Assembly (NCBI GenBank): GCA_000091205.1
Contig: AP006494.2
Strand: one strand, 5' to 3'
DNA length: 64,000 nucleotides
Source: Cyanidioschyzon merolae
Taxonomy: Eukaryota
Part shown: one piece after another, positions 1 through 11,262 of the stretch
Numbering within the stretch: the stretch's first letter is position 1
Layout of the letters: each line of letters begins with the position of its first letter
Program-made: the position numbers and the translations under genes
Notes under the pieces: model-generated
What the model was told of the DNA's origin: nothing
Databases searched by the model: none
Seen by the model: the letters and a program-made list of their open reading frames with translations, nothing else

Positions 1-1304
1 GTTTCATTTCGAGCGCCGCAGCATGCACAGACACTTCCCTCTTCGCATATGACACGTCTTTGACAAGTACAGAAGGCCACCCTTGACACCCTTCTCCGTT
101 TTCGCTCCCAGTATCTGGAACCGCGACTACGGCTCTTCTGCTGATCAATCCCGGGCGATGTGAGCATCGCCCGCTGTGCACGAAACCGCATGCTGTTCCA
201 TTCGATGGAGGATGAAAGAACAGAAACTAACCACTGACTAGCAACTCGATAACAGTTTCTTTAGACCTTGACAGTACGCGTTGAAATGGGGAAAAGCTTC
301 CATATCTTCCAAATTTTACCTTCTAGGCGGAAGGTCCCGCGAGCCGGACGAGTCTGCGGTGCTAGCTAGTGCTTCATGCTTCCTCCAGTGGCAGGTGCAG
401 TGGCGAGACCTGCACAAGTCGTCCGCAACGCATTTCATCTAGGACTAGACGCAGCAAAGCTACATCTGGGCGTCGCCCTGGTCGCAGTGGACTCCCAGTA
501 TATCGCTTCGCGCTGCTGCAGACTCCTAGAATGCTGATGTTCGGGGACCCCGCGTCCGATGAACCACGCCTCGAGCCGACGCCCTCAGTGGTATGCCACA
601 GCTATTCTGTCGCCATGCAGCACCTGCTTCAGCGGTGGAAGCGCTACGGCGGGTGCTCACGGCAGACTAGGTGCACGATAGAACATACAAAACGACCAGC
701 ACATCCGAAAGGAATTACAAATCATGAAACTCGGTGGCAGGTGTAGCAGTGCAATGAACGCTCGCCCGAAAGCCAATACCCACCATCAATCCGTGATCCA
801 TGGTCAATGCAGACGTGTTGCCATCGGCAAAAATCGCCTGCATGATGCGCAAAGCGCCACCCGCTCTGGGGGCATTCAAGCGCATCCATCTTTGTCGCAA
901 ATTAAGGATCCCACTGCCCGCACGGCGGCGCCAGCAACTGCGCCATCGCGGATCGACGGCGCGAACGCGCGGCGCCGAGTCGGCCATTCGCCAAGAACAG
1001 CAGCGATCTTGGAACGCTTGCTAGGGCGCGCGCCCTGCACCAGGGCGGCCCAAAGTGCGCGGGCACGATGGCGTGCCTCGCAGCCGAGGCAAACACTGCG
1101 CACGGCGGGTCGGGGCACTCTGACCCAGTCGCTGCTGTTGTTGATCACAGGACCGAGGCTAGATGCACGACCTCCAACCGAAGCGGTATACGCTCAACGG
1201 ATGGCTATGGTTTGTCGTTGTGCATAGCGTGACGCAGCTACTCGACTCTGCGTACTTACTACGGATTGCCATTCATTCTTCACGTTTGATACCGCATTTA
1301 AATC

Positions 1305-1916
1305 ATGAAGAAAGCGCTGGCATTACTTCTTGTTGGTATGATGGCCACTGCTGGTGTGGCACAGGCATCTGAGGTCATGGAAAACGAAGGTGCTGTCTTC
1401 GAGGAAGCTCCACTGGAAACGACGGAGCATATGTACTATCAGGATAATAAGAAGCCCTTCTACGTCAACAACCAGCCGTCATATAAGCCGAAATACAAGA
1501 ACTACTACCAGAAGAAGAACTTTTATCAGAAGCAGACCTACATCTACACGAAGCAGCCTATCTACACCAAGCAGCCTATCTACACGAAGCAGCCTATTGA
1601 GACGAAGCAGCCCATCTACAAGAAGCAACCTATCTACACGAAGCAGCCCATCTACACGAAGCAGCCGCAATATGAAAAGTCGTACCAGCCGCAGTACAAG
1701 CAGAAAGAAGTGAAGACGTACATTCCTCTGAAAGAACAGAAGCAACAGCAAGTATACCAAAAGCAAAACAACTACCAAGCAGAGAAAGAGTACTATGCGC
1801 TGAAGAAGCAGTACAAGGGCGAGCAACAGAAAAAATATCAGAATGAGAAGAAAAAGCCGTACCTTTCGAAGAAAAAGTTCTACGGCGAGGAGAATAACAA
1901 TCAGTACTACTGGTAA
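1305..1916 (+). CDS. Secreted low-complexity Tyr/Lys/Gln-rich protein with tandem hexapeptide repeats (YTKQPI)n
   Basis: 203-aa ORF. The N-terminus MKKALALLLVGMMATAGVAQA is a classical signal peptide. The central part is 18-nt tandem repeats encoding KQPIYT about 8 times. The C-terminus is rich in K, Q and Y. Third codon positions stay G/C-biased like neighbouring genes, consistent with a native gene. Confidence 0.5.
   Translation: MKKALALLLVGMMATAGVAQASEVMENEGAVFEEAPLETTEHMYYQDNKKPFYVNNQPSYKPKYKNYYQKKNFYQKQTYIYTKQPIYTKQPIYTKQPIETKQPIYKKQPIYTKQPIYTKQPQYEKSYQPQYKQKEVKTYIPLKEQKQQQVYQKQNNYQAEKEYYALKKQYKGEQQKKYQNEKKKPYLSKKKFYGEENNNQYYW
1544..1668 (+). repeat. 18-bp tandem repeat (aagcagcc[t/c]atctacacg)n, about 7 copies, coding
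   Basis: Direct reading of the sequence. It produces shadow ORFs in the other frames (1354..1713 +, 1479..1826 -). Confidence 0.8.
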
Positions 1917-3059
1917 GCTAGCTAGCTAGCTGCTGACGGGACGCCGATGGAATCGCGTGCGGGCGGGTGTTCGGCTTCCTGCACAACCGAAGCACCGCAT
2001 CGTTCCAGACTACAGCGGGCGCAGGTCCACTACTGGCGAAGGGTTCACAGCTGGAAATCCGATTGCATTGTGGTCCGCGGGCGCGACTAGGCAGCATTCT
2101 CTGAGGAGGCTCGTTGTAAAATGGACAGGAACCTGTTACGAATCCACTCACATACCAGGCAACACTGAGTTCAGCATTCAGTGGAACAGGTCGTCGAATT
2201 CGGGCGGGAACGCTCGAGCTCCGGTCGCTTCTCTGTGGCATCATCAGCGCCAGCCTCTGCGGGACTGCTCAGTGACTGCTTCCGTTTCCCCTCTCTGATG
2301 TCCGGCTTGCAATACGCCAGTCTCTCTTGTCTCCAAAGCTCCGATATTAGTAGTCGTTGAGGAATTTTGATGGCAGCGTTCCAGTCCCGATTTCACCGCT
2401 TGTGGATGTTTTCAACGCATTTCATTCACAGGCGGAAGATGCGATCTGCGATTCGCAACCCATTGTCATCGTCTTTGAACGCAGCGTCGGTGCACCGTTC
2501 GCGGTGGTTATACACGCGCATGGTTAGTTGTTCCCATATGCTCACCACAGAGACTCGAGCACTTTCGAGCGCCGCCCTGTGGTCCGTGAACACCTGCTTC
2601 ACCGCTCGGCAGCTACCCGAGATGGGCACGGAAGGCTGCACCCGATGCCAAACCTTCGGTTCGGGGGCTTCTCTGGTCGATGCCCTCGGCGAGTACGCCG
2701 TCCGCTGCAAACGCTAGCGCACGCAGTTCCTTTCGATGGAAGATTTCTGGAACGCTGTGTTGCATATGATAAAACACGTACCGGAAGCACAACCCAGGGC
2801 GGAGAACACGTCGAGAAACTTCGGTCCGTCTGCGCTGCCTTGGTGCGCAGCTGTGACGGACACTCCACTGGGAGCGATCGCTGCGATGATTCCGGTTCAA
2901 TTCCAAGACCCTTAGCCAGGAGTCCAGAGCACACAGGACCGTGTTTTACGCATATCCGGTGAGACGTTTCGTGCTGGTGTAGAATACCAGGACGTCGATG
3001 GCCACAGAAAGATGAGGATTTGTCTGTTGAACGGATTCGATCATTGGCCGTGATCAGTT

Positions 3060-3530: not shown

Positions 3531-6500
3531 TTACCTGCCAGCAGGCTCGAACATGCTGCGCAGATCGGCGAGCGTCAGAGCATGTGTATCGAGCATGTCG
3601 GCTGGGGGACGTGCTCGACACTGCCCTGTAGACTGGTGCTGCTGCTGCTGCTGCTGCTGCTGCCAGACATGACTCGCGCTGATCGCCTGTACCTGCTCCT
3701 CGACGGTACCCTGCACCACATAGCGATGAACATACGTGCAACACGTCTGACCGATACGATGAACACGACCTATTGCTTGCAGCTCGGCCGCAGGGTCCAA
3801 CAGCGGCTCCAGTAAAAACACATGCCGTGCTTCGACGAGGTTCAAACCATTGGCTCCGATGCGAATCGGCAAGAGCAGCGCGCACATTGGCTCACGACGC
3901 CCGCGAAAAGCCTCAACATCACCGATAACGTGCGGGATATTGTTGCGCTCGAGCGCCGCACTCAAGATCTGTAACAGCTCTGACCACAGCGAAAACACGA
4001 CGCATCGATGGGTTGCATCGGGAACAGGCCCTCGCTCCGCAACCTGTCTTGTCGCGTATTCTTGGATGAACAGCAGATCGCGCACGACTGCTTCGATTTT
4101 GGCGCCAAAGCTTCCTTTAATGGGTGCCATCGCGCTCTGCGAACTCGCTGCTCCCGTCTGAATGAACGAGACCTCTCGTGTGTTGCAGACCTCACGGCAA
4201 AGTGGACACGGCAGCGAGCGGCTGTGTTGTCGATAGACGCGCGCCTCGAGGTAGCTCGACGTGCATTCGATACAGAAACAGTGGCCACACGGCAGGAGGA
4301 CAAGCTCGGAACCCAGCTGTCGATAGCAAATCGGACAGGGCTCCTGACGCTTCGCTGCGAGATCCTCTACACAGGAGCTTTTCAGGCGTTGCAAGTAGAC
4401 CAGCTGGCCTTTCTTGCGATCTGACTGTTCTTCAGCGAGGCGGCGATCTAACTCTAGCGCAAGCGCTGTAGACTCGATTTCCGCCTCTAGGATTCGATAG
4501 CGGCGCTCTGACTCGCTGACTTGCTCGCCAGGTGCTCGGAGCGTGATGCGTGTTGCCGCCATAATGAGTTCATCCAGGGCGCCCAGATAGTCTTTCTGAG
4601 CGCGGAAATAGACATGTGCATGCGTAAATTCCTTTTTCAGCAGGGCGAAGCGCTCCCACTCTTTCGCCGCTGATTCTCCGAGAACCCCAGTATCTGCATC
4701 TGCGTCCAAGCGTCTTAGTGCAGCTGCAATGAAGCGCAGGGCACGTTCCAGCTCGCTGGCCAGACGGACACCACCGTCGCCCTCGGTGATCACCGCCGCT
4801 GCACGACGCAGACGATCCCCAGTGGTTGCGTCGGGGGCTTTGCTCGCGTTCACCAGCCTGGTGCGCACGGCAAAGAGGCATCGCTCGTAGGCATCAAAGA
4901 GGTCCTCTGATTCGCAGTGTCGACAGGGCTCTCCCAGCATGTCCTCCCGGCACTGTCTACAGGTCCCGGAAGCACGCACCTCGGCTTCGCTCGGTTCTGC
5001 ATCGCCATTGCCTGGCAGTGACAGGAGCCGATCCAGCAGGGTGCGTCGACTCTGCTCAAGGGCATCGAAGCTTCGTACCAGAGCGTAACGGAGCGCCTTC
5101 AGCGAGAGCGTCTGCGTTCCGCCGAGCAGCTGTCGAACGATGCCGTCCTCCTCGAGTCGATCCAGAAGCCACTGTCCACAATCGGCTCGTTCGATGGCGT
5201 CCAGCGCCGTCATCCACCAGAGACGCACGGGCGCTGCATGCGCACAGCGTTCCAGTTCGGAACTGAGACGCTGCAACTGCCGTCTCGCGTTTTGCACCTG
5301 CTCGCGTCGCTCCCGTAAATACGCCTCGCGTAAAGCGTCGGCATCCGAGCGCAGACAATCGTCTCGGAGCGTTACCCCAAAATCTAAGCGTTCAGCGGGG
5401 TGCTTCTCCAGCACTTGTGCCAAATTAACCAGTACATGGTATCGCTGTAGCGGATCGATTTCGACAAAATTGGCTTGTTTCGGCTCCTGTGCACGCTGCA
5501 GCACTGCGCGGTACAGGCGAACTGCATCGGCTGGTTGACCACGCAACCACGCGATGGCAGCGAGTCCATTCAAAGATGCCACCAGCGAGCGTTGTGCCTC
5601 CTCGCATTCGAGTCGTGCTCGTTGAATGAGGACATCCAGTACCTGATCCATGGTCATCATGTTCGCCTCGAGCCCAGTCCCTGTGGAGCTACCACCGAAA
5701 CCTCCCGGGGCCAGACGTGGATGACAACACGCCTGCCTTAGCACTTTCAGATGATGCAGCACCGAGCGAACCAGGCCGTATCCGCGTCGAGACGCAGACT
5801 TGAGCAGCGAACCCGGTTCCTCCAGGTATTTCGCAACCCGTGCGTTTAATAGATGCTGCACAAAACTGACACAGGTCTCGTGCTGGCGGTTGTAATAGTG
5901 TCGCTCGACGGGGCCGAGGCTGAGGTTCTGCATGATTTCAAACTGCGGCGGAAGGTTGAGCTCCATCCAGACGTCGGCTTTCTGGGAGCGCCAGGCAAGC
6001 GCTCGTATCAGCTGCGCTAGTCGCAAGCTCGCACCGCTGCCGTTCCGCTCGCAGGGTCGTATCAACCATTTGCGCCAGATTTCCGGTTCGCAGAAGGGTT
6101 CAAACCTCAGGAAACGCACAAGGCTTTCCAGGTCGTCCACAGATCGGCGTACTGGGGTACCGGTGATGCACCAACGCTTGTGCGCGTGCAGCTGCAGCGC
6201 CATCGCTGCTGCCGCGGCAACACCACCACGGATCATTTGCGCTTCATCGAGACATACCCGCTCCCACTCTATGCGAGTCAAAGGGGTTGGTGCAACTCGA
6301 TAGCGCTTCTCGTATCGAAGACTTCTCGGCCGAAGAATGTTCTCGTGTGCCCGGTTGACGTCTGCGCGCAGGGCATCGTACGTGGTGAGCACCACATCCG
6401 CTCGCCTCAGGCGTCTCAGACGCTGATAGGTCTCGCGGTGCAGGCCCTGGTACACGACAACATCCAGGGAGGCATCCTCGACGTGCTTTCGTATCTCGCT

Positions 6501-7928
6501 TTCCCATTGACGAAGGATAATGCTCGGACAAACGATGAGCGTCGACTTGCTTGGTAGGGGCGTATCAGAATGAAGCAGCTCGGCGCAATCCTCGCAGAAA
6601 TAGCGTTTGCGAGCGCGGCCCACGATGAGCGCGTGAACAAGTGGCTTGTTTTGAAACCGACCGCACTCGCAGCATACTCTCTTGCTTTGACGAACGCACC
6701 CATCTTCCGGAATATGATCATCGGATTGTCCAGAGGCATTTCCGGCGACTGGTCGCTGCGCACGCTCCAGAAGGATGCAAGCCAGCAGCTCGACGGTCTT
6801 GCCGAGGCCCATCTCGTCACAAAGCATGCCACCGTATACGAGGTGCTCGGGTATGGTATCGATTCCCGATGTCGAGGCCGCGGTTGCAACCGACTCGAGC
6901 GCATGGAAAAGCAGCGGCGCGTACTCGCCACCACCTCGCGTATCCGGGATGCAAACCGGTGCCAGTGACTCCCAAGCAATCCCGTGACGTTCCCTTTCGA
7001 GCATCCAGGTGACGGCGCGGCACTGATAGGGGCGCAGCCGCGGCCGCAAACCAGGAACCTCCGGCGACACCAGAGGCCTGCTCGCGGCACCATGGGGTGC
7101 TCCGGGCGACGCTTCAGGTACAGCGTCGACATCCGACGGCAAGCGGCGCATGGCCTCATAGACCCAGGGCGCTTCGCCCCATAACGATCGCTCATCGGCA
7201 GCTCGAGGGGCGACTTGTACGTTCACCACGCCGCGAGCCGAGCGGAAGCACCAGCCCACATTCGCTGGTGCGTAAGCTGCAGTTGGCTGCAGCCGGGCTT
7301 CAGCTAGCGCCACCTGGGGATGCCACCAGCTGAGTACCTGGTGCAGGTCCCGCCGCAGCACCTCCTGTCGTAAAGACGCCGCGAGGCATCGCTCCCGATG
7401 CACAAGGACAAGGAAGCTCGGGATCGGCTCCGGAATAGGTGCAAGCGTCAGGATCTTCCTCTGGCACAGCCGCGTAACGCTTTCAACCAGCGCCGCTGGC
7501 ACTGGGCCCAGGCTCACTGCTTCCGGTTGTTCGGCGTCGTCGGGCGCTTTCCGCTTCCTTGCCCTCATTGGTGGCTTGCAGTCCGCGCCCGCACACCCCG
7601 TTGAGACGAAGCGGAGTGACCAGCACGTTTGTGATCCGGACAATGCAGGAACGTTTTCCGAGGCACGCAAGTGCAGCACGGCGCTGTCCGTAAACGTTTC
7701 CACCTGGTGTTGCCCGAGCCCGTCCAGCATACCCACAGCGAACCAGTTCGAGTCTGCGGCTGCTGCAGGCTCGATGTCCAACCAGGTTTCAGTGCAGGCT
7801 TGAGCGGGTGCCAAGGAGCGTGGGCGCTTCGCTTCAAGCCTTCTTGGAGCTACCTGCGTTGTCTCAGTTTGCACGACGCCTTCATTTGTGTATGGTCGGC
7901 GACGAGGTCGTGCTTGTTTAGTGCGCAT
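3531..7928 (-). CDS. SNF2-family DNA helicase with embedded C3HC4 RING finger, SHPRH-like (Rad5/Rad16/HLTF class), polyQ near C-terminus
   Basis: 1465-aa ORF. SNF2 motif I (LCDEMGLGKTVELL) is followed by a Cys-rich PHD-like insert (CCECGRF...YFCEDCAELL) before motif Ia (LIVCPSIILRQW). DEAQ box, motif III (WCITGTP). RING: CPICYRQ...LPCGHCFCIECT...CPLCR. Helicase-C: LNLVEARHVFLLEP...AIGRVHRIGQ. C-terminal QQQQQQQQHQ. Confidence 0.8.
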   Translation of the reverse strand: MRTKQARPRRRPYTNEGVVQTETTQVAPRRLEAKRPRSLAPAQACTETWLDIEPAAAADSNWFAVGMLDGLGQHQVETFTDSAVLHLRASENVPALSGSQTCWSLRFVSTGCAGADCKPPMRARKRKAPDDAEQPEAVSLGPVPAALVESVTRLCQRKILTLAPIPEPIPSFLVLVHRERCLAASLRQEVLRRDLHQVLSWWHPQVALAEARLQPTAAYAPANVGWCFRSARGVVNVQVAPRAADERSLWGEAPWVYEAMRRLPSDVDAVPEASPGAPHGAASRPLVSPEVPGLRPRLRPYQCRAVTWMLERERHGIAWESLAPVCIPDTRGGGEYAPLLFHALESVATAASTSGIDTIPEHLVYGGMLCDEMGLGKTVELLACILLERAQRPVAGNASGQSDDHIPEDGCVRQSKRVCCECGRFQNKPLVHALIVGRARKRYFCEDCAELLHSDTPLPSKSTLIVCPSIILRQWESEIRKHVEDASLDVVVYQGLHRETYQRLRRLRRADVVLTTYDALRADVNRAHENILRPRSLRYEKRYRVAPTPLTRIEWERVCLDEAQMIRGGVAAAAAMALQLHAHKRWCITGTPVRRSVDDLESLVRFLRFEPFCEPEIWRKWLIRPCERNGSGASLRLAQLIRALAWRSQKADVWMELNLPPQFEIMQNLSLGPVERHYYNRQHETCVSFVQHLLNARVAKYLEEPGSLLKSASRRGYGLVRSVLHHLKVLRQACCHPRLAPGGFGGSSTGTGLEANMMTMDQVLDVLIQRARLECEEAQRSLVASLNGLAAIAWLRGQPADAVRLYRAVLQRAQEPKQANFVEIDPLQRYHVLVNLAQVLEKHPAERLDFGVTLRDDCLRSDADALREAYLRERREQVQNARRQLQRLSSELERCAHAAPVRLWWMTALDAIERADCGQWLLDRLEEDGIVRQLLGGTQTLSLKALRYALVRSFDALEQSRRTLLDRLLSLPGNGDAEPSEAEVRASGTCRQCREDMLGEPCRHCESEDLFDAYERCLFAVRTRLVNASKAPDATTGDRLRRAAAVITEGDGGVRLASELERALRFIAAALRRLDADADTGVLGESAAKEWERFALLKKEFTHAHVYFRAQKDYLGALDELIMAATRITLRAPGEQVSESERRYRILEAEIESTALALELDRRLAEEQSDRKKGQLVYLQRLKSSCVEDLAAKRQEPCPICYRQLGSELVLLPCGHCFCIECTSSYLEARVYRQHSRSLPCPLCREVCNTREVSFIQTGAASSQSAMAPIKGSFGAKIEAVVRDLLFIQEYATRQVAERGPVPDATHRCVVFSLWSELLQILSAALERNNIPHVIGDVEAFRGRREPMCALLLPIRIGANGLNLVEARHVFLLEPLLDPAAELQAIGRVHRIGQTCCTYVHRYVVQGTVEEQVQAISASHVWQQQQQQQQHQSTGQCRARPPADMLDTHALTLADLRSMFEPAGR
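3635..3662 (-). repeat. (CAG)n microsatellite, about 9 units, encoding the polyQ of the SNF2 protein
   Basis: ctgctgctgctg... on the + strand, inside the 3531..7928 CDS. Confidence 0.9.
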
Positions 7929-10293: not shown

Positions 10294-11262
10294 ATGTTGG
10301 GCTTTCAAGTTGGATTCGGGAGCGGGATCAGTCTTTTTGAACGCCGCAGAGTACTGGCTGGGCAAGTGCACCGACTCTGGCGCGGTTCCCGGTCGCTTGC
10401 GGTTACCGCATCTCGAAGGCCTTCGGTGTCGGTTAGCTGCAGGCTACGCAATCCTGGCGGGTTTCATTTGCCTCCACGAGTACCGAACGAAGAGCATGAG
10501 CTCCGTAGAGCGATCGAGCTTCTGGGTAATCGAACGCAGCGGCGACTGCGACCGGAGATGAGGGAAGCGCTCGCCGCACTTTTGGGCGAGTACCCGCCTA
10601 CCAAGGAGATCGCCCAACAGTGGAAGTACCGGCTTACGCGAATAGCCCAGGAGGAACAAGTGAGACGAAAGCAAAGCACAAGTGCTCCGCAAGGTGCAGA
10701 TCCTGGCCCAGTTACGCGACGACAGGCACTTCTTCGGGAGATCGAGCAGAACCTTCTCATACCCGAGAGCGACGAGCAGGTGCAGCGGGCGTTTTCGATC
10801 CTAGGCCGAATTATCGAACGTAAGGACAAACCTACTGAAAGCGAAGAAGCAGAACTCCAGCGCCTATTGGGTGTGGTGCCTGGCGGGGTGCTGACCGCCA
10901 AGCGCGCGGTACGGGTGTTGCGGGAGCAGGTTGCGAGTCGTCGGCGTTTTGAACGCTGGCCACCGTTTGTACCGCTGGCCTTGGAGCGCGTTCGTGAAGC
11001 CCGCGTCATCCTTCGCCAGATCGCTATCCAACGCTCGGCTGGTGCGAAAGCTGCTGCTCGCTTGAAAGAACTGCTGGCTGGTGGCTATCCGCGTAATCAA
11101 CGGGTCGCCCGCTCGTGGTGGAAACGCTTTTGCCTCGTGGAGCGCTTGTATGAGAAAAAGGCTTACAAAGCGATGCGTAAGGAACTTGTGGAACGTATAC
11201 GGGCGGAGCGACGAGCACGTGCTGAAAAGCGCCGTCTCCAAGGCGATGCACCACCCGCATGA
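10294..11262 (+). CDS. Hypothetical basic/charged protein with Arg/Ser-rich N-terminus (possible organellar presequence)
   Basis: 322-aa ORF in an otherwise gene-sized gap. K/R/E-rich helical repeats. No family recognised. Confidence 0.35.
   Translation: MLGFQVGFGSGISLFERRRVLAGQVHRLWRGSRSLAVTASRRPSVSVSCRLRNPGGFHLPPRVPNEEHELRRAIELLGNRTQRRLRPEMREALAALLGEYPPTKEIAQQWKYRLTRIAQEEQVRRKQSTSAPQGADPGPVTRRQALLREIEQNLLIPESDEQVQRAFSILGRIIERKDKPTESEEAELQRLLGVVPGGVLTAKRAVRVLREQVASRRRFERWPPFVPLALERVREARVILRQIAIQRSAGAKAAARLKELLAGGYPRNQRVARSWWKRFCLVERLYEKKAYKAMRKELVERIRAERRARAEKRRLQGDAPPA

Follow-up and report, generated by a model that had tools for sequence, protein, structure and literature searches.

Plant proline-rich proteins and extensins are insolubilised in the cell wall through tyrosine cross-links, and the eggshell and vitelline proteins of trematodes are quinone-tanned precursors rich in Tyr and Lys. 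The wall of the Cyanidiophyceae is unusual among algae in that about half of it is protein and it is presumed to act as a proton barrier at pH 1-3. Published work puts its protein content at 50-55% and finds cellulose synthases missing (PMC13353863). According to the same study, the walled diploid phase of these algae builds its wall mostly from protein and without cellulose; diploids are enriched in a secreted lysyl oxidase that occurs in Cyanidioschyzon, Cyanidiococcus and Cyanidium and not in Galdieria, RBOH is diploid-enriched as well, and class III peroxidases are absent from these genera (PMC13353863). Tomo et al. proposed that the lysyl oxidase cross-links unknown wall proteins (PMC6508830).

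Here we describe a gene encoding a Lys-, Tyr- and Gln-rich protein in a 64-kb stretch of chromosome 12 of the hot-spring red alga Cyanidioschyzon merolae 10D (64,000 nucleotides; hereafter the window). In our favoured reading, to which we give a probability of about one half, this small, secreted, disordered and basic protein serves the non-Galdieria Cyanidiophyceae as a structural precursor of their cell wall or extracellular matrix and is made insoluble via Lys and/or Tyr cross-links.

Results

Gene, neighbourhood and transcript signals

An intact open reading frame on the plus strand (1305..1916) runs from ATG to TAA and encodes 203 amino acids, exactly as the first-pass annotation had described it; the coding assignment, stop codon included, draws on the ORF list, its translation, dN/dS and accession numbering. 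The flanking genes encode HDS/GcpE (CML284C) on one side and a SHPRH-type helicase on the other. Because the accession numbering fits between BAM80863 (GcpE, CML284C) and BAM80865, the ORF is probably the hypothetical protein BAM80864, that is, CML285C or CML286C. The peptide, these accessions and both locus names went without mention in the searchable text of papers, and the gene identifiers are absent from the supplements of PMC11662350. The other genes of the window are housekeeping genes (Nup35, DnaJ, LigT, AAA ATPases, RFC and DEAD/PHD helicases), and no paralog of the protein occurs within its 64 kb. None of them encodes a peroxidase, a tyrosinase or a lysyl oxidase; the check for cross-linking partners of the peroxidase or tyrosinase type nearby, which the first-pass annotation had proposed, found none in the window.

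Transcription is supported indirectly by four chimeric, putatively transcript-derived JGI contigs, which hold fragments of the ORF restricted to window positions 1289-1951. Position 1289 is the upstream limit, beyond which no ORF-bearing chimeric contig reaches; it is the start of contig L001 and defines a minimal 5' untranslated leader of 16 nt before the ATG (1289..1304, plus strand). Downstream, the transcript-like contigs terminate at 1927 and 1951, and Tandem Repeats Finder placed an (AGCT)4 microsatellite (1916..1931, strand unassigned) that touches the stop codon and lies inside the 3' UTR. L013 and L014, both of low GC content (40-41%), are among the chimera partners. Such chimeric contigs are typical of abundant mRNA in metatranscriptome assemblies, the sample type being putative. 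Two Logan contigs (L028 and L029) were set aside as transcript evidence; they are environmental variants that span intergenic DNA and are uninformative on transcription.

These fragments bear on the idea that the protein acts in the haploid or gamete, as a surface or mating protein that coats the wall-less cell or initiates the zygote wall, and not in the vegetative diploid wall. Strain 10D keeps the gene intact, and it is the wall-less haploid of an alga that also has a walled diploid phase (PMC13353863); moreover, 35-50% of the genes for secretory proteins change from one phase to the other, some being higher in haploids and some in diploids (PMC13353863). However, the putative transcript fragments recur in assemblies from natural populations, which are reported to be walled diploids (PMC13353863), and we regard a haploid-specific role as very unlikely.

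Conservation and lineage distribution

Orthologs were found in Cyanidiococcus yangmingshanensis, in a third lineage of Cyanidioschyzonaceae and on a Cyanidium caldarium-type contig. The order GcpE, ORF, SHPRH is shared by the ortholog loci in L015, L016, L017 and L019, and the neighbours in L019, the Cyanidium-type locus, cluster at at least 90% identity with the C. caldarium proteins KAK4537924-26. Comparison of C. merolae, the L016/L017 lineage and Cyanidiococcus gave dN/dS values of 0.09-0.17 at dS of 1.1-2.2; with dS above 1, values this low mark the ORF as a protein-coding gene under purifying selection. The start, the stop, the signal-like N-terminus and a C-terminal motif are kept in four lineages, including an ortholog of 36-44% identity. 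At the level of sequence, the ORF is therefore confirmed as a genuine, conserved gene. Matches from a metagenome scan were exclusively 100% identical proteins, three full-length and two partial through contig truncation; at 99.5% DNA identity, the environmental strains lie too close for a useful dN/dS. All four polymorphic sites among them fall at third codon positions, in a set that was picked by exact-protein look-up and is hence biased.

The window is GC-rich and contains many spurious ORFs of 100-170 aa, so that a chance open frame derived from an A-rich, microsatellite-like tract had to be considered, together with a non-secreted protein bearing a fortuitous hydrophobic N-terminus; the signal peptide discussed below was judged by heuristic assessment. 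A chance frame is at odds with the low dN/dS across genera at saturated synonymous divergence, with the four-lineage conservation of both ends and of the C-terminal motif, and with repeat units that differ only synonymously. The spurious-ORF reading is effectively refuted by the dN/dS and the conservation, and the two possibilities together appear extremely improbable.

The protein has no recognisable domain, as had been noted from the sequence: Pfam-A returned no family at E<=10 for it and no match for the Cyanidium-type ortholog, and a search of PDB sequences gave no match at E<=1. Word-indexed protein searches (one single-sequence query and two profile queries) recovered only chimeric fragments of the same gene and one true distant ortholog, P0145. 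An exhaustive phmmer search of 1.8 billion representatives returned self-fragments and, as the only non-self matches, P0112, P0113 and P0119, which align with the repeat region (E 9e-20 to 1e-7). All members of the family that the protein and contig searches turned up belong to Cyanidioschyzon, to Cyanidiococcus or to Cyanidium-type genomes, in agreement with the initial guess that it may be lineage-specific, and these are the same three genera reported to carry lysyl oxidase. No member was found in Galdieria; this absence is weakly supported, since the collections miss the C. merolae and Cyanidiococcus members too.

Predicted secretion and extreme composition

The N-terminus consists of MKK, a 16-residue hydrophobic core (mean Kyte-Doolittle hydropathy 2.18) and A-x-A, followed by S/T/V-E. 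In C. merolae, residues 1-21 (MKKALALLLVGMMATAGVAQA; 1305..1367, plus strand) form a predicted ER signal peptide with a basic n-region, Ala at -3 and -1 and cleavage before SE. This n/h/c layout of the ER type is common to the orthologs of four lineages, and the heuristic assessment agrees with the signal peptide that had first been proposed. The C-terminus carries no GPI or transmembrane signal, because a hydrophobic tail is missing, and there is no N-glycosylation sequon in the protein. We predict from these features that the protein is secreted without a membrane anchor.

The composition of the protein is extreme and is conserved among orthologs. The mature part contains 19% Lys, 16% Tyr and 15.5% Gln, against 1.8%, 1.9% and 5.1% in neighbouring genes; this upholds the unusual Y/K/Q richness that had drawn attention to the gene, while the Tyr content of roughly 17% given then is corrected to 29 of 203 residues (14.3%) in the precursor and 16.0% in the mature part. 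Together the three residues make up 47% of this ORF, whereas the runner-up among the window's 260 ATG-initiated ORFs of 60 aa or more reaches 19%. Cys is absent, and so is Arg from the mature part (0 of 181 residues, where the neighbouring genes have 9.1%; P ~3e-8). The orthologs have 19-22% Lys, 12-18.5% Tyr, 14-18% Gln, 0-0.6% Arg and no Cys, with the lower Tyr content in the Cyanidium-type sequence.

The predicted product is strongly basic and of ~21 kDa, with a net charge of ~+17 at neutral pH and ~+35 with its carboxylates protonated. Such values, together with the predicted disorder described below and the view of the wall as proton-impermeable (PMC13353863), lend something to the proposal of a non-covalent polycationic coat, which would sit on anionic polysaccharides, glycoproteins or the membrane and act as a Donnan barrier against protons and metal cations. 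Charge alone, however, predicts Arg in a GC-rich, Arg-rich genome; Arg outnumbers Lys ~5:1 there, and yet the basic residues of this protein are nearly all Lys. Moreover, Tyr and Gln are conserved too. We consider a purely electrostatic coat unlikely; as far as composition can tell, the exclusive use of Lys argues for epsilon-amine chemistry and not for charge alone.

The same composition could serve a wet adhesive or biofilm holdfast like the mussel foot proteins, in which pairs of Lys and Tyr (possibly DOPA) would fasten cells in flowing acidic water to rock or to one another and not build a wall. The predicted signal peptide, the tandem repeats and the richness in Tyr, Lys and Pro would suit such a protein, as would its fully cationic state at pH 1-3 and the attachment of Cyanidiophyceae mats to stones in nature (PMC13353863). 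Against this, silica or rock is almost uncharged at pH 1-2, from which a polycation gains less; Tyr content falls in the Cyanidium-type ortholog; Pfam and phmmer revealed no homology to mussel foot proteins; and no candidate partner of the tyrosinase or polyphenol oxidase type came to light, none being encoded in the window. An adhesive function thus seems improbable to much the same degree as the coat.

Domain layout, repeats and predicted structure

The mature protein begins with an acidic segment (aa 22-42, SEVMENEGAVFEEAPLETTEH; 1368..1430, plus strand) identified by charge calculation, a 22-residue window across it having a net charge of ~-7. The segment carries -7 to -9 in three Cyanidioschyzonaceae orthologs and is shorter and almost neutral in the Cyanidium-type ortholog.

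Residues 83-124 (1551..1676, plus strand) form a hexapeptide array that reads KQPIYT four times, then KQPIET, KQPIYK and KQPQYE, as defined from Tandem Repeats Finder (period 18 nt, 6.9 copies, 85% matches, score 194, at 1542-1666) and the codons of each unit. The units are the same as peptide, and their codons vary only at synonymous third positions. Copy number differs by strain: L016 has 5 perfect units, and L017 has 7. The first-pass annotation had described the protein as built from KQPIYT repeats; seven units of this type are present, but the array makes up 42 of ~181 mature residues, or ~23%. The remainder is non-repetitive and has the same composition, with a Tyr every 6-8 residues.

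The Cyanidium-type ortholog, whose units read TKQPIE or TKKPIE, does without the repeat Tyr, which counts against the cross-linked wall reading.

AlphaFold2 predicts an intrinsically disordered protein save for one alpha-helix (aa 142-182; 1728..1850, plus strand), with pLDDT of ~68-78 in the helix, below 50 in the remainder and 49.5 on average. The helix, defined also by invariant columns, holds the best-conserved motif, KEYxALxKQYKGEQ. It is followed by a basic, Tyr-rich C-terminus (KKPYLSKKKFYGEENNNQYYW; 1851..1913, plus strand) that is conserved in the ortholog alignment: the pattern KKPY(L/V/I)(S/N)K(K/E)K(F/Y)YG is kept in all four orthologs, and the NNN-QYY ending only in the three Cyanidioschyzonaceae sequences.

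Discussion

We infer a role as a cross-linkable wall protein from the composition, the use of Lys over Arg and the literature context. The protein would enter the ER, undergo signal cleavage and be exported, and its acidic 21-residue N-terminal segment may act as a charge-masking pro-region that shields the polycationic body while the protein passes through the secretory pathway at neutral pH. Outside the cell, the Lys epsilon-amines and the regularly spaced Tyr residues would be covalently cross-linked, which would render the protein insoluble in the proteinaceous wall of the walled diploid. Three chemistries are candidates: CMN144C, the secreted lysyl oxidase enriched in diploids, could generate allysine; reactive oxygen derived from RBOH (NADPH oxidase) could drive the formation of dityrosine or Tyr-quinone adducts; and Gln-Lys isopeptides could form. 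Lysyl oxidase requires the unprotonated amine, so that an external pH of 1-3 is unfavourable to it; with an acid exterior, cross-linking would therefore have to occur before or at export. The enzymatic dityrosine route is weakened by the reported lack of class III peroxidases (PMC13353863). That strain 10D has retained an intact gene may be explained by its being no more than the haploid stage of an alga whose diploids are walled, but an intact gene in a wall-less strain would also fit a wall-independent role.

A bolder version of this reading holds that the acid-proof, cellulose-free wall of Cyanidioschyzon, Cyanidiococcus and Cyanidium has this protein as its main scaffold, and that the protein is the physiological substrate of their horizontally acquired lysyl oxidase. 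We hold this version to be rather doubtful, at somewhat better odds than the adhesive or the coat. If it is true, a red-algal lineage has independently built an elastin- or byssus-like matrix, cross-linked through Lys and Tyr and switched on in the diploid. In any case, the gene offers a concrete candidate for what the diploid-enriched lysyl oxidase cross-links: it is conserved, orphan, predicted to be secreted, rich in Tyr and Gln, and has Lys as its only basic residue. If the wall idea is wrong, it is still a clean lineage-restricted, low-complexity gene under strong purifying selection.

Comparison with known systems

A close likeness in layout is to the plant proline-rich proteins and extensins (HRGPs), which share with this protein a signal peptide followed by short Lys-x-Pro-(Ile/Val)-Tyr-x tandem repeats and a basic, Tyr-rich, Cys-free composition. 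Even the Tyr-to-Glu change in KQPIET parallels the occurrence of PPVEK beside PPVYK in the plant proteins. In contrast to HRGPs, the units here contain a single Pro, and neither PP nor SPPP occurs in the 203 aa; without Pro-Pro or Ser-Pro(n) motifs there are no obvious sites for hydroxyproline or arabinosylation. The protein also has a very high Gln content and a short array of 7 units, and the host lineage is reported to be without class III peroxidases (PMC13353863). No Pfam family at E<=10 and no plant match in the exhaustive phmmer search pointed to HRGP similarity.

With mussel foot protein 1 (AKPSYPPTYK decapeptides) and the trematode eggshell and vitelline proteins, the protein shares a secreted, disordered type of repeat rich in Lys and Tyr (and Pro), and in those proteins function depends on the chemistry of the Tyr and Lys side chains. 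The repeat here is a hexapeptide and not a decapeptide, the protein is much smaller (~21 kDa) and has 15% Gln, and there is no homology; Pfam, phmmer, word-indexed and PDB searches gave no sign of the Mfp family. Involucrin and SPRR, which transglutaminase cross-links in the cornified envelope, likewise have short tandem repeats rich in Gln and Lys (and Pro), suited to Gln-Lys isopeptides, but they are cytosolic and leaderless, whereas the protein here has a predicted signal peptide, and no homology connects them. No transglutaminase was linked to these algae in the literature examined.

The bacterial and metagenomic proteins P0112, P0113 and P0119 share the x-K-P-(I/V)-Y-x periodicity through arrays of (E/D)(K/R)P(I/V)Y(K/E/T), and in Pfam they give weak beta-roll or repeat matches only. 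They match solely within aa 79-144, range from 237 to 1210 aa, have unrelated flanks and are acidic, not basic. We rejected them as homologs and judge the likeness to be convergent low complexity, given the repeat-only match, the unrelated flanks and the acidity.

Finally, judged by sequence, the protein would belong to the same extracellular, Lys-bearing, largely disordered structural type as the substrates of lysyl oxidase, such as the cross-linking domains of tropoelastin and the telopeptides of collagen. It differs from the animal substrates in having neither Gly-X-Y repeats nor VPGVG-type hydrophobic domains, in its far denser Lys (~1 in 5) and in an extremely acidic setting, which is unfavourable for amine oxidation. 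Features that it shares with them are a predicted signal peptide, 19% Lys in the mature part and predicted disorder, and the genera in which it was found are those reported to have a secreted lysyl oxidase, the absence of the gene from Galdieria being weakly supported. Lysyl oxidase favours cationic substrates, and the strong basicity of this protein fits that preference.

Sequence and composition of the ORF

The ORF at 1305-1916 (+) runs from ATG to TAA through 203 codons without interruption, and its translation reads MKKALALLLVGMMATAGVAQASEVMENEGAVFEEAPLETTEHMYYQDNKKPFYVNNQPSYKPKYKNYYQKKNFYQKQTYIYT-(KQPIYT)2-KQPIET-KQPIYK-(KQPIYT)2-KQPQYE-KSYQPQYKQKEVKTYIPLKEQKQQQVYQKQNNYQAEKEYYALKKQYKGEQQKKYQNEKKKPYLSKKKFYGEENNNQYYW. 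Tandem Repeats Finder detected an 18-nt unit in 6.9 copies at 1542-1666 (score 194). The first-pass annotation, which had described a repeat-bearing ORF here, was borne out with small numerical corrections; its figure of ~17% Tyr proved slightly high, the measured content being 14.3% in the precursor and 16.0% in the mature part. The hexapeptide array comprises just 42 residues, and the rest of the protein has the same composition, with a Tyr every 6-8 residues and spacings of 2, 3 or 5 rare. Lys, Tyr and Gln together make up 47% of the product, compared with 19% for the next-best of the 260 ATG-initiated ORFs (>=60 aa) that the window contains, among which no paralog was found. GC content falls to 45% in the ORF region against 55-65% in the flanks, with a strong AT skew, while GC3 is still 68%. 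An (AGCT)4 microsatellite (1916-1931) begins on the final base of the TAA and is invariant across the environmental contigs examined.

The GcpE/HDS gene (BAM80863), given as CML284C in C. merolae (PMC12649381), lies immediately upstream of the window. Exact look-up identified the genes downstream of the ORF as an SHPRH helicase-like protein (BAM80865, 3531-7928, minus strand), a Nup35-type protein (BAM80866, 13874-14929) and an agmatine deiminase (BAM80867, 15393-16589). A single accession, BAM80864, falls between GcpE and SHPRH. Because no other substantial ORF exists in that interval, the ORF is probably this annotated hypothetical protein, CML285C or CML286C as judged from accession numbering; neither name is mentioned in searchable papers. 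The surrounding genes are housekeeping genes and include no peroxidase, tyrosinase or other oxidase, so that the proposed search for cross-linking partners nearby came back empty.

Two further features of the locus were observed. A 322-aa ORF at 10294-11262 (+), which has no Pfam match and is kept in many environmental contigs (called as 322 or 234 aa), lacks an NCBI accession, being flanked by BAM80865 and BAM80866; strain 10D may thus carry an unannotated gene here. In environmental strains, the SHPRH helicase is 1464 or 1465 aa long, depending on a codon-sized indel (3637-3639) in its poly-Gln tract close to the C-terminus.

Predicted anatomy of the protein

In the predicted signal peptide (residues 1-21), a basic n-region precedes 16 hydrophobic core residues averaging 2.2 on the Kyte-Doolittle scale, and Ala occupies positions -3 and -1. 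This arrangement is kept in all four orthologs (VAQA|SE, VARA|SE, VARA|TE and LASA|VE), in agreement with the signal peptide of the first-pass annotation. No stretch of the mature protein is hydrophobic (19-aa windows reach -0.56 at most), and it lacks both a C-terminal anchor signal and any N-x-S/T sequon.

The leader is followed by an acidic segment (aa 22-42), whose net charge ranges from -7 to -9 among the three Cyanidioschyzonaceae sequences; in the Cyanidium type it is short and near-neutral. The basic body contains 19-22% Lys, 12-18.5% Tyr, 13.5-18% Gln and 7-10% Pro, against a background of 1.8% Lys, 1.9% Tyr and 5.1% Gln in ten neighbouring genes. Arg accounts for 0-0.6% of the body versus 9.1% of the background (P ~3e-8 for zero Arg). 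Cys is absent, and His and Trp are nearly missing. AlphaFold2 predicts disorder (mean pLDDT 49.5) outside a helix at aa 142-182 (pLDDT ~70), which overlaps the best-conserved motif, KEYxALxKQYKGEQ. The C-terminus carries the conserved motif KKPYxxKKK(F/Y)YG...NNNQYY.

Syntenic orthologs and purifying selection

Searches yielded no Pfam family at E<=10, in line with the earlier statement that no domain is recognisable, nor any relative in PDB at E<=1. In an exhaustive search, long proteins with (E/D)(K/R)P(I/V)Y(K/E) hexapeptide arrays matched in the repeat region only; with their unrelated flanks and overall acidic character, we treat them as convergent. Negative searches for this family are unreliable, as its C. 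merolae and Cyanidiococcus members are missing from large protein collections in which all their neighbours are present. No homolog from Galdieria or elsewhere surfaced, and this gap in the collections leaves absence from Galdieria only weakly supported.

The decisive evidence for a real gene comes from syntenic orthologs. At the GcpE loci of relatives, an ORF occupies the same position and orientation, convergent with the SHPRH gene. It encodes 189 and 201 aa on metagenome contigs L016 and L017, both of a third Cyanidioschyzonaceae lineage, and ~200 aa after repair in Cyanidiococcus yangmingshanensis (L015, VWRR01000015). A profile search recovered a 187-aa ortholog, P0145, 36-44% identical, on the Cyanidium caldarium-type contig L019, where the gene order is GcpE-Sof1-FMO-ORF-SHPRH and neighbouring proteins cluster at >=90% identity with Cd. 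caldarium KAK4537924-26. In the Cyanidiococcus array, a single-base gap in a KQPIYT unit (~7170-7200, minus strand) shifts the frame, which past the gap is open to the conserved stop ...KKKYYGEQNNNQYYY; the gap is probably an assembly error rather than the mark of a pseudogene. In the NCBI annotation, an artificial intron appears to bridge it, yielding a product of 190 aa over 602 bp.

Nei-Gojobori estimates gave dN/dS of 0.09-0.17 at dS of 1.1-2.2, and therefore place the gene under strong purifying selection across genera. That the ORF is spurious or its product non-secreted is essentially excluded by these ratios. Perfect KQPIYT units vary in copy number (five in L016, seven in L017) and differ at synonymous positions only (CCT/CCC, ACG/ACC). 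It is the peptide that is maintained, and not merely the DNA tract. Environmental contigs encode an identical protein and say little on selection because their DNA is 99.5% identical; all four variable sites in the ORF (1412, 1484, 1631 and 1658) are third codon positions, a result biased by the choice of part of this set for exact protein identity. Among environmental strains, the intergenic region at 1-1304 has 27 variable sites (2.1%); variability is lower in the ORF (0.65%) and in the intergenic stretch downstream of it (~0.7%).

The intervals also differ in gene content. A Sof1-type WD40 gene separates GcpE from the ORF in Cyanidiococcus (L015, 7999-9441), the L016/L017 lineage (L016, 7765-9276) and the Cyanidium-type contig (L019, 6127-7437). 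It is missing from this interval in C. merolae (1-1304), with no tblastn match in the window or L007, which suggests that C. merolae underwent a local rearrangement. A flavin-monooxygenase-like gene (L019, 7788-9431; cyclohexanone monooxygenase in UniRef) lies directly upstream of the Cyanidium-type ortholog and is not there in the other lineages.

Possible traces of transcription

Protein searches returned short chimeric gene calls that join pieces of the protein to unrelated proteins (P0001-P0004, P0111, P0114, P0116, P0126, P0127 and P0146). Four of the underlying contigs were examined (L013, L014, L001 and L020; JGI samples 3300050363, 3300050364, 3300050370 and 3300050389). The fusion partners are a glutamyl-tRNA reductase gene, a Fer4 (ferredoxin-domain) gene, a Ty3-type gag and a poly(A)-binding protein, the Fer4 and gag partners being on the low-GC contigs L013 and L014 (40-41% GC). 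The ORF-derived parts are confined to 1289-1951, from 16 nt 5' of the ATG to 35 nt 3' of the stop. Such a pattern is expected of an abundant mRNA in metatranscriptome assemblies, and it supports transcription indirectly. For Lemonade Creek, Yellowstone, poly-A and RiboMinus metatranscriptomes dominated by C. merolae are available from JGI (PMC11662350). Gene callers on the four contigs yielded fused "proteins" that contaminate protein databases.

Discussion

Taken together, the gene is real and constrained, and its product combines an ER signal-type leader and no anchor with a conserved, extreme Lys/Tyr/Gln composition from which Arg is excluded. We consider it about an even chance (probability roughly 0.5) that the protein is secreted as a structural precursor of the wall or matrix and becomes cross-linked via its Lys and/or Tyr residues. 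After export, it would be incorporated into the diploid-phase proteinaceous wall or matrix and be rendered insoluble there by covalent side-chain chemistry. The acidic segment could, speculatively, neutralise the polycation during near-neutral transit and release it once its carboxylates are protonated outside.

Strain 10D of Cz. merolae represents the haploid, wall-less stage of a sexual cycle with a walled diploid stage, and natural populations consist of walled diploids (Hirooka et al. 2026, PMC13353863). We regard it as very unlikely that the protein is instead a surface component specific to haploids or to mating. The same study reports that Cyanidiophyceae lack cellulose synthases, that protein makes up ~50-55% of the wall (a figure taken from Bailey and Staehelin 1968), which is thought to be proton-impermeable, and that diploids are enriched in secreted FAS1 proteins, a lysyl oxidase and RBOH. 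A non-covalent polycationic barrier coat would also suit a basic protein; we hold it to be improbable, since Arg outnumbers Lys five to one in the genome and charge alone needs no Lys. The Lys-only basic complement is the strongest internal argument for covalent chemistry, as lysyl-oxidase oxidation, quinone-amine addition and transglutaminase isopeptides all need Lys. The latter two also suit a protein with evenly spaced Tyr and abundant Gln.

Lysyl oxidase is present in Cyanidioschyzon, Cyanidiococcus and Cyanidium and not in Galdieria, and class III peroxidases are found in none of the first three (PMC13353863). The secreted enzyme has been purified (C. merolae homolog CMN144C), and unidentified wall proteins were proposed as its substrates (Tomo et al. 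2018, PMC6508830); Lys/Tyr-rich repeat proteins do not figure in either study. Lysyl oxidase is the most concrete candidate partner because its distribution matches that of our gene, in the same three genera. That the protein is a principal substrate of the enzyme is rather unlikely. Two caveats apply to the proposed mechanism: lysyl-oxidase chemistry is disfavoured at pH 1-3, and Glu replaces the repeat Tyr in the Cyanidium-type ortholog. The first-pass reading of a cross-linkable structural or adhesive protein seems reasonable; an adhesive or holdfast role as such, modelled on mussel foot proteins, is improbable. The family offers a specific, testable link to the newly described diploid wall and its lysyl oxidase.

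The family is an uncharacterised orphan family to which orthologs and evidence of selection are now added. Functionally, the protein resembles plant PPVYK-type proline-rich wall proteins, the Tyr/Lys precursors of mussels and trematodes, lysyl-oxidase substrates and transglutaminase substrates, but it belongs to none of these by sequence or defining motifs. Among secreted, repetitive matrix proteins that can be cross-linked, it is best seen as a lineage-restricted, convergent variant.
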